From Methylacidiphilum caldifontis (GTDB taxonomy: Bacteria > Verrucomicrobiota > Verrucomicrobiia > Methylacidiphilales > CAMAQI01): a stretch of 64,000 nucleotides of DNA. The position numbers and the translations under genes were made by a program. This document shows positions 43,422-48,635 of this stretch, piece by piece (the stretch's first letter is position 1; every line of letters begins with the position of its first letter). Under the pieces are notes generated by a model that saw nothing but the letters and a program-made list of their open reading frames with translations, was not told the DNA's origin and ran no database searches. The stretch lies in the NCBI GenBank assembly GCA_945877805.1, contig CAMCSM010000003.1, positions 1,295 to 65,294 of the forward strand, written 5' to 3'.

Positions 43422-43910
43422 CTATTCCGAAGGGAGATCCGTCCCGGTTTTTCCCCATTTTTCGAGGCAATAATCCAAAGAGATCTTCCCTGGTCCAAAA
43501 AAGAGGATAACAAGGGTCACAATCAGATAGGTCGAGGGAGTCGCACTTAAAAACTCCGAAGGATCAGAAAAAAATTGCAGGAGTTTTTCATGGTCGGCGG
43601 TGTAATAAGCAACCATCATGGTAAAAGCGAGAGGGAGACTAACCACTCTTGAAAATAACCCTAAAATTAAAAACAATCCGCCGAAGCATTCAACAGAGGC
43701 CGCAACCAAGGCATTCATCTGGGGAAAGGGGATATTTAAACCGGTAAAAAATTCCGTGACTTGATCAAGATTTTTTAATTTCCCATATCCAGTGACCATA
43801 AAGAGCCAGCCCCAATAGAGCCTCAGTCCCAATAAAAAGGGGGTCTGAAATAAATTCATGAGTTTATTACACAAAGAGACAGCGGAGAGATAATTCATCT
43901 TGATATTCAT
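43422..43910 (-). CDS. DoxX family membrane protein, last gene of the MNIO cluster
   Basis: LLGLRLYWGWLFMVTGYGKL...ECFGGLFLILGLFSR. Start moved to 43910 to remove the overlap. Confidence 0.75.
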   Translation of the reverse strand: MNIKMNYLSAVSLCNKLMNLFQTPFLLGLRLYWGWLFMVTGYGKLKNLDQVTEFFTGLNIPFPQMNALVAASVECFGGLFLILGLFSRVVSLPLAFTMMVAYYTADHEKLLQFFSDPSEFLSATPSTYLIVTLVILFFGPGKISLDYCLEKWGKTGTDLPSE

Positions 43911-43935
43911 ATTTTTAGATTCACTTGTTTTAGAT

Positions 43936-44814
43936 TCATTTTTTTGATTTTCGTAGAGAGATCCACCCCATCGCCGACCACTCTTGAAACTGGGTTTGCA
44001 CGGAGGCGGCACTCACCGCATCCTTAAATTTATTTTGCTTCATTACTTTTTCAATCGCTGCACCAAGGGAAATTCCTTGATCAAATGCGGTGAGAAGTTC
44101 AAAAGCCCATGGCTCGATTCGTTTAAAATAGACTTTAAATTGATAGCGATGAACGGCTAAATAGATCCTCTCTTTTTTAATCGCTCCGACGAGAGCACGG
44201 CATTTCGACTTTAAACGACGATCTAAAACACCGTTACTCAACTGCTCACGTACCCCCCCTTGATTCAGCTTCAACTGCCATTCATCCAACGGATAATCGA
44301 GTGCCATCAGTCGAACATGGGGAGAGATTCTCAATCGACAAAGGAGGGGGCGAGCCCCCAAATGTTTTGCCGTCAGGGGAGATTCCTCTTTTTCATCATA
44401 AACATGAAGTTGAGCGAGCTCCATCGTCGCCATCTGATAGAAAAGAGCGCTTTTATCCTTGTAGGCTCTCTTTTCTTTGAGAATAAAAGGGGGCAAACGG
44501 GTTCCAAAATCACGTAGGGTATAAGATCGTGAGGGAAATTTCTCGATGTAACGACGAATCAGTCGTTCAAATTCCTGATCCCCCATGAGGGCTCTTAATC
44601 CAGGGAAATCATCATACAATGACTCTAAAATCCGAAACCAATACTGTCGGGCATAAATTTCAATTCGATCGACTGCCGTAAGACGTGAATTCGGTTTGAT
44701 TTCCGATTTTATCCATCGACCGCCGATTCGACTCGGTTGAAGCCGATCTTTTGAGTTTAAAGGGGCTTGAAGGCAGCTTAAGAAATCCTTTTGAAGTTGC
44801 GCAAGAGAGCTCAT
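43936..44814 (-). CDS. DUF2063 family protein (BufC/HvfC-like MNIO partner)
   Basis: IEIYARQYWFRILESLYDDFPGLRALMGDQEFERLIRRYIEKFPS. 4-nt overlap with the DUF692 gene. Confidence 0.75.
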   Translation of the reverse strand: MSSLAQLQKDFLSCLQAPLNSKDRLQPSRIGGRWIKSEIKPNSRLTAVDRIEIYARQYWFRILESLYDDFPGLRALMGDQEFERLIRRYIEKFPSRSYTLRDFGTRLPPFILKEKRAYKDKSALFYQMATMELAQLHVYDEKEESPLTAKHLGARPLLCRLRISPHVRLMALDYPLDEWQLKLNQGGVREQLSNGVLDRRLKSKCRALVGAIKKERIYLAVHRYQFKVYFKRIEPWAFELLTAFDQGISLGAAIEKVMKQNKFKDAVSAASVQTQFQEWSAMGWISLRKSKK

Positions 44815-45680
44815 TTTTTAGCCCTCTTTTTTTTCTGAGCCGCTTTGTCTTTATCTTTCCAATAGCGAGTCGCTTTCTTTGCTTCATCATGAACCTCTTG
44901 AAAAGAGGGGATACTGGCATCCCACTCCAAAAGGGTTGCGGTAGGCCCCACCTTTTGAATCGCTAAGTCATAAAGTTCCCAGACCGGATCAATCACGGGG
45001 TGGTCATGGGTATCAATAATAAATCGTTCATATTTCGAATGACCTGCGATATGCATTTGAGCCACGCGATGATGGGGAACCCCTAAAATATAATCTCGGG
45101 GATCAAAGGTATGATTCTGGGAGGAAACATAAATATTATTTACGTCGAGAAGGATCCCACAGTCGGCCCGTTCGACGACCTCTGTCAAAAACTCCCATTC
45201 CGTCATCTCTGAGGAATGAAATTCGGCGTAGCTACTCACATTCTCGACGGCAATGGGGATCTCTAAATAATCACGAACTTCACGAATTTTCTTCGCCGCA
45301 TTTTTCGCCGCATCTAATGTGTACGGAAGCGGGAGTAAATCATGAGAATAGGTTCCATCGACACTTCCCCAACATAAATGATCGGAGAGCCATGGAGTCT
45401 TCGTGCGTTTGACTAAATCTTTCAGTTTTTTTAGATGAGTTCGATTGAGTCGTTCTTTGGAGCCAAAATAAAGGGAGACCCCATGTTGAACGACTTGATA
45501 TTGCTCTAAAATTTGATCGAGGATATGCAGTGCCCGTCCCCCCTCCTGCATATAATTTTCTGAAATAATCTCGAACCAATCAACGGTCGGTTTTTCCGTC
45601 AAAATATGATCGTAATGAGGGACTCTCAATCCGATTCCAATCCCATAATTCGTGAAATTATTAAAGCGATTTGCAGGCAT
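44811..45680 (-). CDS. DUF692 / MbnB-family multinuclear non-heme iron oxidative enzyme (MNIO)
   Basis: GIGLRVPHY...VDWFEIISENYM...HGVSLYFGS...PWLSDHLCW...VENVSSY...LLDVNNIYVS...MHIAGH...IDTHDHPV...LEWD. Confidence 0.9.
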   Translation of the reverse strand: MPANRFNNFTNYGIGIGLRVPHYDHILTEKPTVDWFEIISENYMQEGGRALHILDQILEQYQVVQHGVSLYFGSKERLNRTHLKKLKDLVKRTKTPWLSDHLCWGSVDGTYSHDLLPLPYTLDAAKNAAKKIREVRDYLEIPIAVENVSSYAEFHSSEMTEWEFLTEVVERADCGILLDVNNIYVSSQNHTFDPRDYILGVPHHRVAQMHIAGHSKYERFIIDTHDHPVIDPVWELYDLAIQKVGPTATLLEWDASIPSFQEVHDEAKKATRYWKDKDKAAQKKKRAKK

Positions 45681-45897: not shown

Positions 45898-45968
45898 CAC
45901 TGAGTTTTTCTTAAGGGAACTTTCCGATTATAAGTCGGAAAGCTCCCTTTTGATCTTAAACTAAATAA

Positions 45969-46244: not shown

Positions 46245-46326
46245 TGTTTTATCCTTTTTTTTTATTTTTTTGTTTTGAAGCGATCGGAAATTCCGAACAG
46301 CTATTATTAAGAGTCCCAGAAAAAAA

Positions 46327-46342
46327 GTTTATTCCCAGAAAT
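46327..46342 (-). promoter_or_regulatory. Candidate ECF-type promoter element upstream of the precursor gene
   Basis: Minus strand reads ATTTCTGGGAATAAAC, then 13 nt, then CTCTTA. The same GGGAATAAAC 10-mer recurs upstream of the sigma gene. Confidence 0.4.
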
Positions 46343-47094
46343 TAAAATAATTTTTTAAGCTCATCGAGCGTCACTCCTCCCGTCAAGATATACCCGTGAC
46401 TTTCATCAGTCCAACTGGCCACCGCATTCCCTTGTCTCTCGTGAAAATCAGGAACTCCAAAGGAGGGAAGATTTTGCAGATCGGCTTTATCGATGACAAA
46501 AAGATGAACCTCTTTTTTAACTCCTTCGATCTGAAAACAGATCATCGAGGAGCGAATTCCAAAAAATTCGACCTGACGACAGCCAAATTGAGAGAGTCCC
46601 TCCACATGAAAGGGGATCTGGAATGAATGGGGAGTCCCACGGCTCTTGAGCCACTCCCGCGCTTCACTTAATTGGGGGGTTTTCTTCGAAAGCATGAAAA
46701 CGCTCTGAGTGAAATCAACGGCTCTCCCCTCGAATTGAGCAAAGTCATTCGATTTCGAGTTCTCCCAGAAGGAGAAGGTCGTCAAACTCAAAATCAGCAG
46801 CGCAGCGGCCGCTAACGGAATCCATAAATAGCGAGGGAATGAAATGATCTTCGCCGATTTCTGCTGCTGCTCTTGATTTTGAGCTAAAATCTTCCGTTTA
46901 AGATCCTCAGGAATCGAAATTGAATGGATCGATTTTTTAATTTTTGAATCCCACTGATATTGCTGCTCCCAAACCCTTTTCAAGGAGGGATCACGCTCCA
47001 TCTCCGCAAAGGCGGCCTCAATCTGTGGATCCCCCTCCCCCTCTTGAGGCGAGCGAACAGACAAGAGGATCTCTAAGATTTGCTCTCTTTTCAT
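46342..47094 (-). CDS. Single-pass anti-sigma factor
   Basis: ATGA overlap with the ECF sigma gene. Cytoplasmic N-terminus, TM helix LWIPLAAAALLILSLTTFSFW, periplasmic C-terminal domain. Confidence 0.6.
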   Translation of the reverse strand: MKREQILEILLSVRSPQEGEGDPQIEAAFAEMERDPSLKRVWEQQYQWDSKIKKSIHSISIPEDLKRKILAQNQEQQQKSAKIISFPRYLWIPLAAAALLILSLTTFSFWENSKSNDFAQFEGRAVDFTQSVFMLSKKTPQLSEAREWLKSRGTPHSFQIPFHVEGLSQFGCRQVEFFGIRSSMICFQIEGVKKEVHLFVIDKADLQNLPSFGVPDFHERQGNAVASWTDESHGYILTGGVTLDELKKLF

Positions 47095-47606
47095 GCTCTT
47101 ACCTCCGCAAAATATTTTTCTAATCGTTTCCTCATGATTCCCTTCCCTCGTGCGAGACGGGACATCACGGTTCCGATCGGAATCTCTAAAATATCGGCGA
47201 TTTCTTTATAAGATAGATCCTCCAAATAAAAGAGGGTCAACGGCTCACGATAAACAAGATCGAGCCCCTTTAAAACCTCGACCACCTTCTCTCCATCCAT
47301 CTCTAAAGGGACCGGTGGGGCCTCATCGGCTAACTCAATCGTCATCTCCTCGAAACTTTCGCTGGGATGATTTTTCTCCCGTCGTCTCGACCGGAGAAAC
47401 TCCCGATAGAGAGTCGTAAAGAGCCAAGTCTTGACCTTGGAGGGATCGCGCAATTGATCCCCTTTGCTCGCCCAGATAAAAAAGGTTTGCTGAGTCAAAT
47501 CGGAGGCATCCGCCTCGCTGCCGGAGAGGCTGATACCAAAACGAAAAAGGGATGAATAATAGGTCTCGACCACGACTTCAAACTCCATTGGGTGATTGTT
47601 ATTCAT
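47091..47606 (-). CDS. ECF (group IV) sigma-70 factor
   Basis: Region 2 DASDLTQQTFFIWA...WLFTTLYREFL. Region 4 LSYKEIADILEIPIGTVMSRLARGK. Confidence 0.85.
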   Translation of the reverse strand: MNNNHPMEFEVVVETYYSSLFRFGISLSGSEADASDLTQQTFFIWASKGDQLRDPSKVKTWLFTTLYREFLRSRRREKNHPSESFEEMTIELADEAPPVPLEMDGEKVVEVLKGLDLVYREPLTLFYLEDLSYKEIADILEIPIGTVMSRLARGKGIMRKRLEKYFAEVRA

Positions 47607-47625
47607 GTGAGACAGAAGGACTTTG

Positions 47626-47640
47626 GTTTATTCCCGAAAT
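47626..47640 (-). promoter_or_regulatory. Candidate autoregulatory ECF promoter element
   Basis: Minus strand reads ATTTCGGGAATAAAC, then 14 nt, then CTCAC, directly before the annotated ATG at 47606. Confidence 0.35.
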
Positions 47641-47852
47641 AAATCCAGCCCAAAAATCATAAACAAAGCCAACTCCTTCTTCTCTTTCAAACCACCATGA
47701 GAAAAGGACATCTCTAGTGGTGCGCTTCTAAAGACAGAGATAATCCAATTCCTTTCTTTCGGAAGGATTCGTAATAAATTTTTAAGACATTCTCCAGGGG
47801 GTGTCTCCCAATTAAGAGAGGGCTTCCAACTGTCAAGAAACTCGTTTTGCAT
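47628..47852 (-). CDS. Hypothetical small protein (74 aa)
   Basis: ORF only. 20-nt overlap with the upstream small ORF. No family recognised. Confidence 0.25.
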   Translation of the reverse strand: MQNEFLDSWKPSLNWETPPGECLKNLLRILPKERNWIISVFRSAPLEMSFSHGGLKEKKELALFMIFGLDLFRE

Positions 47853-48078
47853 GTTGTCGATATTTCAAGTAATCAACCCCTTGAGAGATGAGTCTACTTT
47901 CAATTTCAGAATCAATAACCAACTTGGAAATCAACTCTTTGTCTCTTTTCGAAAATGCTGCGTCAGGACGCAAAAGCAACCTTGCGGCAATCCTATTTTT
48001 TCTCCAAATTGAACATTGCTTCTTCACTTCTACAAATATAATTAGTTTCAAAAAAAAAGTCAAAACCCTAAGCAGCAA
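47833..48078 (-). CDS. Hypothetical small protein (up to 81 aa)
   Basis: ORF only. The N-terminus may be spurious. Confidence 0.2.
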   Translation of the reverse strand: MLLRVLTFFLKLIIFVEVKKQCSIWRKNRIAARLLLRPDAAFSKRDKELISKLVIDSEIESRLISQGVDYLKYRQHAKRVS

Positions 48079-48151: not shown

Positions 48152-48388
48152 ATGCCTGAAATTTTTCGAAAAGAAGGGTTTGTCGTTAGTTTTTATTCTG
48201 GGGATGGGCACGAGCCGATCCATGTTCATGTTCGTAAAGCGGGGGGAGAGGCAAAGATTTGGGTCGAGCCTATCCAAGTTGAATATGGCAAACGAATGGA
48301 ATGGCAGGACTTAAAAAGAGCAGAAGAGCTGGTCGCAGAAAATATCGATCTTATCAAAATGAGGTGGCATGAATACTTTGGAAGTTGA
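48152..48388 (+). CDS. DUF4160 family protein
   Basis: FYSGDGHEPIHVHVRKAGGEAKIWVEP signature. Confidence 0.8.
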   Translation: MPEIFRKEGFVVSFYSGDGHEPIHVHVRKAGGEAKIWVEPIQVEYGKRMEWQDLKRAEELVAENIDLIKMRWHEYFGS

Positions 48389-48635
48389 TTTGGATTTATT
48401 AGAGCCTATAAAGGTTCGTTACGACAATGGATCGATTATCATCACCTTAAGTGATGGACGCGAAGTCACCTTTCCGTGTGCGGTGAACGAATATCTCTCC
48501 GTAGCCACCGAAGCAGAAATTTCAAAAATGGAAATTTCTCCCTGCGGTATTCATTGGCCTCTTCTCAACGAAGATTTATCGATCAAAGGTATTTTAGAGG
48601 GACGCTTTGGACGTACTCCACGATCGCCTAAATAA
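48369..48635 (+). CDS. DUF2442 family protein
   Basis: IIITLSDGREVTFP...ISPCGIHWPLLNEDLSIKGILEG. 20-nt overlap with the DUF4160 gene. Confidence 0.8.
   Translation: MNTLEVDLDLLEPIKVRYDNGSIIITLSDGREVTFPCAVNEYLSVATEAEISKMEISPCGIHWPLLNEDLSIKGILEGRFGRTPRSPK

Follow-up and report, generated by a model that had tools for sequence, protein, structure and literature searches.

In the 64,000-nucleotide stretch of Methylacidiphilum caldifontis DNA analysed here (contig CAMCSM010000003.1; hereafter the window), a bipartite motif occurs on the minus strand in front of two neighbouring genes, that of a sigma factor of the extracytoplasmic function (ECF) type and that of a small cysteine-rich precursor peptide. 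These two copies, called P_sig and P_pre below, are very probably cognate promoters of the adjacent sigma factor, which would make the locus a self-activating sigma/anti-sigma pair that also drives the precursor gene. On the minus strand the genes follow each other in the order sigma, putative anti-sigma (hereafter anti-sigma), precursor, MNIO/DUF692, DUF2063 and DoxX/HvfX (Table 1). Four elements of this reading are inferred: that both promoters depend on sigma, where transcription starts, which signal induces it and at which codon sigma begins.

Read on the minus strand, positions 46342-46327 carry ATTTCTGGGAATAAAC, followed 13 nt further on by CTCTTA at 46313-46308. The precursor ATG (46244) lies 82 nt past this 16-mer and 63 nt past CTCTTA. 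Positions 47640-47626 carry ATTTCGGGAATAAAC, which is followed after 14 nt by CTCAC (47611-47607); of the sigma ATGs, the annotated one stands at 47606 and another, in the same frame, at 47588. Re-reading of the minus strand showed all coordinates and spacings of the initial annotation to be correct, and its central observation, a motif shared by the regions upstream of the sigma and precursor genes, is present in the sequence. The shared 10-mer GGGAATAAAC has only two exact copies within the 64 kb scanned (minus strand, 47635-47626 and 46336-46327) against 0.18 expected, a count reached in 2 of 100 shuffles. The bipartite form GGAATAAAC-N12-16-CTC is likewise found twice in the window, against 0.11 expected, and none of 100 shuffles reached this number. 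When one mismatch is allowed, the 10-mer shows no enrichment in the window (6 matches, 5.8 expected), so that the signal consists of two exact bipartite sites. A dispersed repeat was considered and rejected, the one-mismatch count being at chance level and a repeat search of the window returning the two sites only.

Conservation was assessed with one genome per species in 80 Verrucomicrobiota loci carrying an orthologue of the sigma factor (50-93% identity; loci are designated by L numbers). The closest genome is a metagenome-assembled genome (MAG) of a Methylacidiphilum sp., whose sigma factor is 93% identical. Upstream regions were aligned on the conserved sigma N-terminus and the motif was sought up to 140 nt upstream of the sigma gene. 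A refined consensus, GGAAYAA-N15/16-CTCyyA, which equals GGAAT-N17/18-CTC, is present in 69 of the 80 loci, and GGAAYAA itself in 70 of the 81 sequences obtained when the window is included. In the -10 block the search imposed only the dinucleotide TC. In the hexamer of the 69 family sites, T and C at the second and third positions are present in all 69, the fourth and fifth positions are y, and the first C and the sixth A, neither of which was imposed, occur in 61 and 68 sites. A T-rich tract stands ahead of the -35 block in the family sites.

A two-block weight matrix built from the 69 orthologous sites, with the window excluded, assigns 28.0 bits to the P_sig site (47634-47606) and 25.3 bits to the P_pre site (46335-46308). 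The third-best match on both strands of the window (128 kb) reaches 14.3 bits. For comparison, the best score in each of 200 first-order Markov windows was 14.7 bits at the median and 19.8 at the 95th percentile, and never rose above 22.1. The motif is therefore genuine at the level of the family, and within the window it has no instances besides these two sites. The third match (29208-29181) was rejected as a further regulon member: its score is at noise level and it lies antisense inside an open reading frame (ORF) for a GspE/PilB-like ATPase.

Close relatives delimit the element upstream of sigma. Between the window, L001 and L002, similarity extends no farther upstream than CTGGATTT, some 12 nt ahead of the -35 element; the block CTGGATTTatttyGGGAATAAA is kept in both relatives and homology is lost farther upstream. 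At the level of the family, a GGAAC variant of the -35 element is restricted to one sigma subclade (L012, L013, L030, L059, L061, L064, L068 and L072), which fits co-evolution of the sigma factor and its site. The sigma factors of this subclade carry R22Q (8/8, versus 0/62 elsewhere) and R120Q (6/8 versus 0/62). These substitutions were considered as determinants of GGAAT versus GGAAC specificity and set aside: as all GGAAC loci form one clade, such a role is inseparable from shared ancestry.

This distribution also bears on which protein reads the motif. A paralogous ECF sigma factor encoded elsewhere could do so, in which case the locus would belong to a sigma cascade and would not be autoregulated. 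Verrucomicrobiota are indeed rich in ECF sigma factors (7764 ECF-like proteins at E <= 1e-10), GGAAT-type -35 elements are common to other ECF groups such as SigH, and sigF of Caulobacter is itself partly under another, unidentified regulator (PMC3511200). However, in 69 of 80 genomes across the phylum the motif accompanies this sigma orthologue, and the target of a foreign sigma factor would be unlikely to co-segregate so tightly. Together with the GGAAC variant that tracks a single subclade of this sigma, this makes a cascade improbable. The shared sequence might also be the operator of a DNA-binding regulator, for example a metal-responsive repressor, rather than a promoter. Metal-homeostasis operons are often controlled by repressors and the motif overlaps the place where one would act, but it lacks dyad symmetry and is composed of two short invariant blocks set 15/16 nt apart, a fixed spacing. 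The distance between motif and start codon is likewise fixed and matches promoter geometry, and no regulator gene other than those of sigma and anti-sigma is conserved in the loci. We regard an operator as extremely improbable.

Reading by the adjacent sigma factor thus being preferred, the second question is whether the precursor has a promoter of its own. A site of the P_pre type precedes the precursor gene in all seven relatives whose sequence covers the region (L001, L002, L032, L081, L083, L085 and L086), with matrix scores of 20.1-28.4 bits. In L001 and L002 it is located between anti-sigma and precursor, scoring 21.2 and 20.1 bits respectively. L032, the MAG of a Verrucomicrobium sp. 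whose sigma factor is 57% identical, has a DoxX gene inserted between anti-sigma and precursor, and there the site (28.4 bits) is found directly before the precursor. Six further metagenomic relatives were available, and all those that reach far enough (L081, L083, L085 and L086) carry both promoters. An alignment of the precursor intergenic region shows GGAATAAA and the -10 hexamer among its conserved blocks. As the same motif stands before the precursor in every relative covering the region, the predicted separate, sigma-dependent precursor promoter is a conserved feature.

It could be argued that only P_sig is functional, the precursor being expressed by read-through and the second copy being a relic or a chance match. 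No terminator lies between the anti-sigma and precursor genes, so that expression of the precursor is possible without a separate promoter, and the second site scores slightly lower than the first. Yet this site is kept in all relatives covering the region while the surrounding intergenic sequence diverges, in L032 it stays directly before the precursor despite the inserted DoxX gene, and its score in the window is above those of all 200 random windows. A silent second copy is therefore very improbable. The initial annotation had proposed an ECF-type -35/-10 pair, an autoregulated ECF sigma factor and a separate action of this factor on the precursor. The first proposal is borne out by the bipartite motif and its spacing across the 69 loci, the second gains support from the presence of that motif before the sigma gene itself, and the third from the conserved second site of the seven relatives.

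Besides the absence of a terminator, several points weigh against this reading. The regular expression GGAA[TC]A served as seed for the -35 half of the matrix, and the independent evidence therefore comes from the -10 half and the spacing only. Spacers of both 15 and 16 nt are in use, although ECF sigma factors are usually strict in spacing. The motif scan of this genome spans 64 kb. The window is one of 15 loci whose -10 hexamer is overlapped at its end by an in-frame ATG. Finally, the sole canonical start codon before the conserved Phe9 of the sigma factor lies inside or abuts the predicted promoter in L021, L070, L035, L030, L075 and L062; the simple model does not account for these loci, which imply either a further promoter upstream or start codons of an unusual kind.

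The last two points concern the position of the transcription and translation starts. The closest solved homologue of the sigma factor is M. tuberculosis SigH (E = 2.8e-13). In the SigH open complex, GGAACA is separated by a 17-bp spacer from GTT at -11 to -9, and SigH promoters perform best with this spacer (PMC6411747). Mapping of CTC onto the GTT of SigH places +1 six nt past the A of CTCyyA. The predicted starts of Table 1 follow this geometry. The precursor mRNA would thereby have a 5' untranslated region (UTR) of approximately 57 nt, in which AAGGA precedes the ATG by 8 nt. In the family as a whole, the sigma gene's first in-frame start codon falls 5, 6 or 7 nt past the hexamer in 8, 13 and 5 loci respectively (26 in total), a peak that coincides with the expected position of an ECF transcription start. 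This clustering points to a leaderless or one-nucleotide-leader geometry for most sigma genes of the family.

The window is not among them. It falls in a second class, of 15 loci, where the closing A of the hexamer doubles as the A of an in-frame ATG (CTCAC-ATG). Since ATG 47606 begins with the final base of CTCACA, a P_sig transcript cannot contain this codon. A transcript beginning at A47600 or A47599 would instead have a leader of about 12 nt, without Shine-Dalgarno sequence, before ATG 47588. We lean, by a modest degree, towards this codon, codon 7 of the annotated gene, as the true start of sigma. At codon 7 all close relatives have a start codon too, which favours 47588: it is ATG in the window, L083/L084 and L086, TTG in L001, L002, L081 and L082, and GTG in L085. 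The upstream in-frame ATG varies in its position relative to the promoter among these relatives. Several distant orthologues start exactly with M-E/D-F-E/D. Conservation of Phe9 across the family speaks against a start at GTG 47573. Public gene calls of this sigma conflict, with versions of 171, 176, 166 and 160 aa, the shortest beginning at GTG 47573, 9 nt past a GGAG. The initial annotation had offered two ways to account for the short distance between promoter and ATG, a leaderless mRNA or the internal Met at 47588. The internal start agrees with the geometry of the family, whereas a leaderless mRNA from 47606 does not; the leaderless arrangement applies to most other family members, unlike the window.

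The sigma protein itself is composed of regions 2 and 4 only (Pfam Sigma70_r2, 39.4 bits; Sigma70_r4_2, 52.1 bits) and matches the NCBIfam profile TIGR02937 for ECF sigma-70 factors (64.3 bits, cut-off 42.9). Between the sigma promoter and the DUF4160 gene upstream of it, two ORFs of 74 and 81 aa at 47628-48078 (minus strand) have no Pfam match and are probably non-coding; nucleotide similarity to L001 is lost there. A sigma-70-like sequence, TTGACT-17-TATATT at 48063-48035, could supply basal read-through into sigma. Just upstream of the sigma promoter a DUF4160/DUF2442 gene pair occupies 48152-48635 on the plus strand, and a RelE/MqsA-like pair is found in the equivalent position of L087/L088 (L087, 5260-5918). 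The boundary seems to be a recurrent site of small toxin-antitoxin-like modules.

The gene that directly follows sigma in 72 of 81 loci encodes a putative anti-sigma factor. The protein contains a single hydrophobic span, at approximately residues 88-110, and a C-terminal periplasmic domain of about 140 aa. Its 87 N-terminal cytoplasmic residues are devoid of cysteine, and the only two cysteines, Cys172 (46581-46579, minus strand) and Cys186 (46539-46537, minus strand), both lie in the C-terminal domain. Each is conserved in 67 of 72 sequences, and Gly171, His197 and Trp228 are also conserved. The conserved pair makes a periplasmic redox or copper sensor plausible. No HxxxCxxC zinc motif is found in the protein; with a membrane span and an N-terminal region free of cysteine, it falls outside the zinc anti-sigma type. 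Nor does it match DUF1109/NrsF by Pfam search, and it has one span instead of six. The nearest family matches are below threshold (DUF3379, 24.4 versus 33.2 bits; LIMLP_03685 anti-sigma, 19.4 versus 200 bits). Foldseek returned no match at E <= 0.001 with a weak AlphaFold model (mean predicted local distance difference test, pLDDT, of 57.8; six homologues), whose top matches, RseB/MucB at E = 0.009-0.06, are uninformative.

Downstream of anti-sigma, the precursor, MNIO, DUF2063 and DoxX genes are identified from their protein sequences as a bufferin-like cluster for a peptide that is ribosomally synthesized and then modified post-translationally (RiPP). The MNIO protein is matched both by NCBIfam (MNIO_BufB) and by Pfam (MbnB_TglH_ChrH). 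The precursor has no match in Pfam, DUF2282 included, or in NCBIfam; unclassified small cysteine-containing peptides with a signal peptide, encoded before MNIO genes, have been described (PMC12452194) and it fits that description. The true start of DoxX is probably downstream of 44012. Past DoxX a cysteine synthase (PALP/CysK) gene is found both in the window (43351-42389, minus strand) and in L081 (6525-7487; sigma 73% identical). It may supply cysteine for the Cys-rich peptide or may reflect mere local synteny.

Table 1. Predicted features of the sigma/anti-sigma and precursor region (window coordinates)
Feature	Coordinates	Strand	Remarks
ECF sigma coding sequence	47091..47588	-	start at codon 7 somewhat favoured; annotated start 47606; callers in relatives also use GTG 47573
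Putative anti-sigma factor, single membrane span, 250 aa	46342..47094	-	ATG overlaps sigma stop (ATGA)
Precursor peptide, 91 aa	45969..46244	-	signal-peptide-like N-terminus; three C-SGKDG-C repeats; 6 Cys
MNIO (DUF692) bufferin-type maturase	44811..45680	-	MNIO_BufB 350.3 versus cut-off 310; MbnB_TglH_ChrH E = 3e-108
DUF2063 / HvfC-like partner	43936..44814	-	Pfam DUF2063 61.6 versus cut-off 27.2 bits
DoxX / HvfX-family membrane protein	43422..44012	-	Pfam DoxX 76.7 bits; NCBIfam HvfX 81.6 versus 80
P_sig -35, GGAATAA	47628..47634	-	inside the 47640-47626 motif; T-rich run 47640-47636 upstream
P_sig -10, CTCACA	47606..47611	-	16 nt past GGAATAA; last A is the A of the annotated ATG
P_pre -35, GGAATAA	46329..46335	-	starts 6 nt past anti-sigma stop codon
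P_pre -10, CTCTTA	46308..46313	-	15 nt past GGAATAA
Transcription start of sigma operon, predicted	47599..47600	-	SigH geometry and family start-codon peak
Transcription start of precursor mRNA, predicted	46301..46302	-	same geometry as P_sig
5' hairpin of predicted precursor mRNA	46279..46302	-	separate folding of orthologous 5' UTRs
Hairpin just past precursor stop	45913..45949	-	-26.2 kcal/mol, z = -5.2

Two hairpins frame the predicted precursor message. The 5' UTRs of the precursor in the window and in the seven relatives L001, L002, L032, L081, L083, L085 and L086 were folded separately, and in all eight a hairpin occurs at the predicted start or within a few nt of it. The stems differ in sequence and are out of register in the alignment, from which RNAalifold derived no consensus structure. 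This 5' hairpin is probably an mRNA stabiliser. The hairpin just past the precursor stop codon is conserved in L001 (5638-5676), and in L002 (5491-5530) a hairpin with a T-run stands directly before the MNIO ATG. In the window it is probably an attenuator or terminator located before the enzyme genes, suggesting an attenuation that sets the precursor-to-enzyme ratio. The spacer between precursor and MNIO varies from about 60 nt in L002 to about 288 nt in the window (45968-45681, minus strand) and about 440 nt in L001 (5620-6056). Its final stretch of some 110 nt, ahead of the MNIO ATG, is conserved in the window and L001, and a separate enzyme promoter is possible there.

In most of the 80 loci sigma is not flanked by an MNIO cluster. 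Outside the position upstream of sigma the 80 loci contain 27 further sites that score 16 bits or more, where 2.0 would be expected; from 20 bits upwards the expected number is 0.0. These sites precede bufferin-like precursors (L001, L002 and L032), other small Cys-rich secreted peptides (L019 and L044), DoxX (L041 and L055) and cupredoxin-like genes divergent from sigma (L012, and L064 by similarity to L012). Others precede genes for an AhpC/TSA peroxiredoxin (L052), DinB (L023), a Rieske protein (L027) and DUF5069. Together they form a coherent set with a redox and copper flavour. In Prosthecobacter-like loci (L019, 2188-2400; L044, 3499-3700; L060) a tiny gene for a Cys-rich, lipoprotein-like peptide of 41-48 aa with 7-9 Cys lies directly upstream of sigma. 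In L019 and L044 it is the peptide gene, rather than sigma, that the motif precedes; L060 has no matrix match of at least 16 bits.

We propose the following circuit. A periplasmic signal, most likely copper or thiol-oxidative stress, would be sensed through the Cys pair of the anti-sigma factor, whose inactivation would free sigma. Sigma would then transcribe its own translationally coupled sigma/anti-sigma operon from P_sig, creating a positive feedback; these transcripts would begin near 47600 and, given the overlap between the annotated ATG and the -10 hexamer, their translation would start at codon 7 (ATG 47588). Sigma would also fire P_pre and produce an abundant precursor mRNA bearing the 5' hairpin, to which read-through from P_sig would add, no terminator being present between anti-sigma and precursor. 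Part of the transcription would stop at the hairpin past the gene and yield more precursor than modifying enzyme. The two hairpins together would give a stable, abundant precursor message and a lower expression of the enzyme genes.

Circuits of this kind are well known. The sigma and anti-sigma genes of E. coli RpoE-RseA and B. subtilis SigW-RsiW are co-transcribed from a promoter that the sigma factor itself reads, and autoregulated ECF modules generally combine stringent -35 and -10 elements with a small regulon that includes neighbouring genes. Most sigma genes of the present family are leaderless in their predicted geometry, unlike those generic modules. The sigR and sigH genes are also autoregulated, and their anti-sigma factors, RsrA and RshA, are soluble zinc-binding proteins. 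The promoters of M. tuberculosis SigH and Streptomyces SigR (GGAA[C/T]-N17-18-GTT) share the -35 core GGAAY and the overall spacing with those described here, but their -10 element is GTT in place of CTCyyA. In contrast to the SigR/SigH systems, the partner is here a putative membrane anti-sigma factor without the HxxxCxxC zinc motif. A survey of ECF promoters (PMC7776599) makes general statements on autoregulated modules; it describes leaderless transcripts in Actinobacteria and not in Firmicutes, and Verrucomicrobia are not mentioned in that main text.

The closest parallel in organization is SigF-NrsF of Caulobacter crescentus/vibrioides, where near-identical promoters precede sigF and the buf1 precursor operon (CC3254-3257) and were verified by 5' rapid amplification of cDNA ends (5'-RACE) and reporter assays (PMC3511200, PMC11626156). 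In both systems the genes of an ECF sigma factor and of its anti-sigma factor, a putative one in the window, adjoin a precursor-MNIO(DUF692)-DUF2063-DoxX operon, with near-identical sigma-dependent promoters, predicted in the present case, before sigma and precursor. NrsF contains two functionally important conserved cysteines and the system answers metal stress (PMC3511200, PMC11626156). The anti-sigma factor described here also has two conserved cysteines, which may act as a sensor. The components are nevertheless distinct. The Caulobacter motif is GTAACC-N16-CGAA, compared with GGAATAA-N15/16-CTCyyA here, and the window has no match to GTAACC-N15-17-CGAA. NrsF is a six-span DUF1109 protein (PMC3511200), whereas the present anti-sigma factor has a single span and a periplasmic domain of about 140 aa. 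The Caulobacter precursor belongs to DUF2282; the one in the window has no Pfam or NCBIfam family. Bufferin surveys name only anti-sigma factors of the NrsF type with Buf1 clusters. A literature search, which was incomplete, found nothing on this ECF group, its motif or MNIO/bufferin clusters of Methylacidiphilum, and no paper joining DUF3379 with ECF factors. The available portion of the ECF classification paper has no text on Verrucomicrobia, DUF692 or DUF3379 and does not allow a group name to be assigned. The locus is a standard autoregulated ECF circuit with one adjacent target promoter, in a version not previously described in the literature found.

Current understanding of ECF regulation is not overturned by this locus, which is a well-supported example of the standard circuit. 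Its consensus, GGAAYAA-N15/16-CTCyyA, is that of a sigma/anti-sigma family which occurs throughout Verrucomicrobiota; it is testable and allows regulon prediction in uncultured members. The likely start codon of the sigma gene is corrected, and widespread leaderless sigma mRNAs are hinted at in this phylum. For a Methylacidiphilum-like methanotroph, a bufferin-like copper-peptide cluster would be tied to a dedicated envelope-stress switch. The same logic as in Caulobacter, with an unrelated anti-sigma factor and motif, suggests that ECF control of such peptides was recruited more than once. A broader view, which we put forward only as a tentative and rather unlikely proposal, is that of an undescribed, phylum-wide verrucomicrobial ECF group whose single-pass anti-sigma factor senses periplasmic copper or thiol oxidation by its Cys pair. 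The regulon would centre on secreted Cys-rich peptides, DoxX proteins, cupredoxins and peroxiredoxins and would, in Methylacidiphilum, include a bufferin-like metallophore. If this were true, the metallophore would manage the copper that the methane-oxidising machinery of this methanotroph needs and that is also toxic to it. The system would then parallel methanobactin control in function, with regulatory components unrelated to it.

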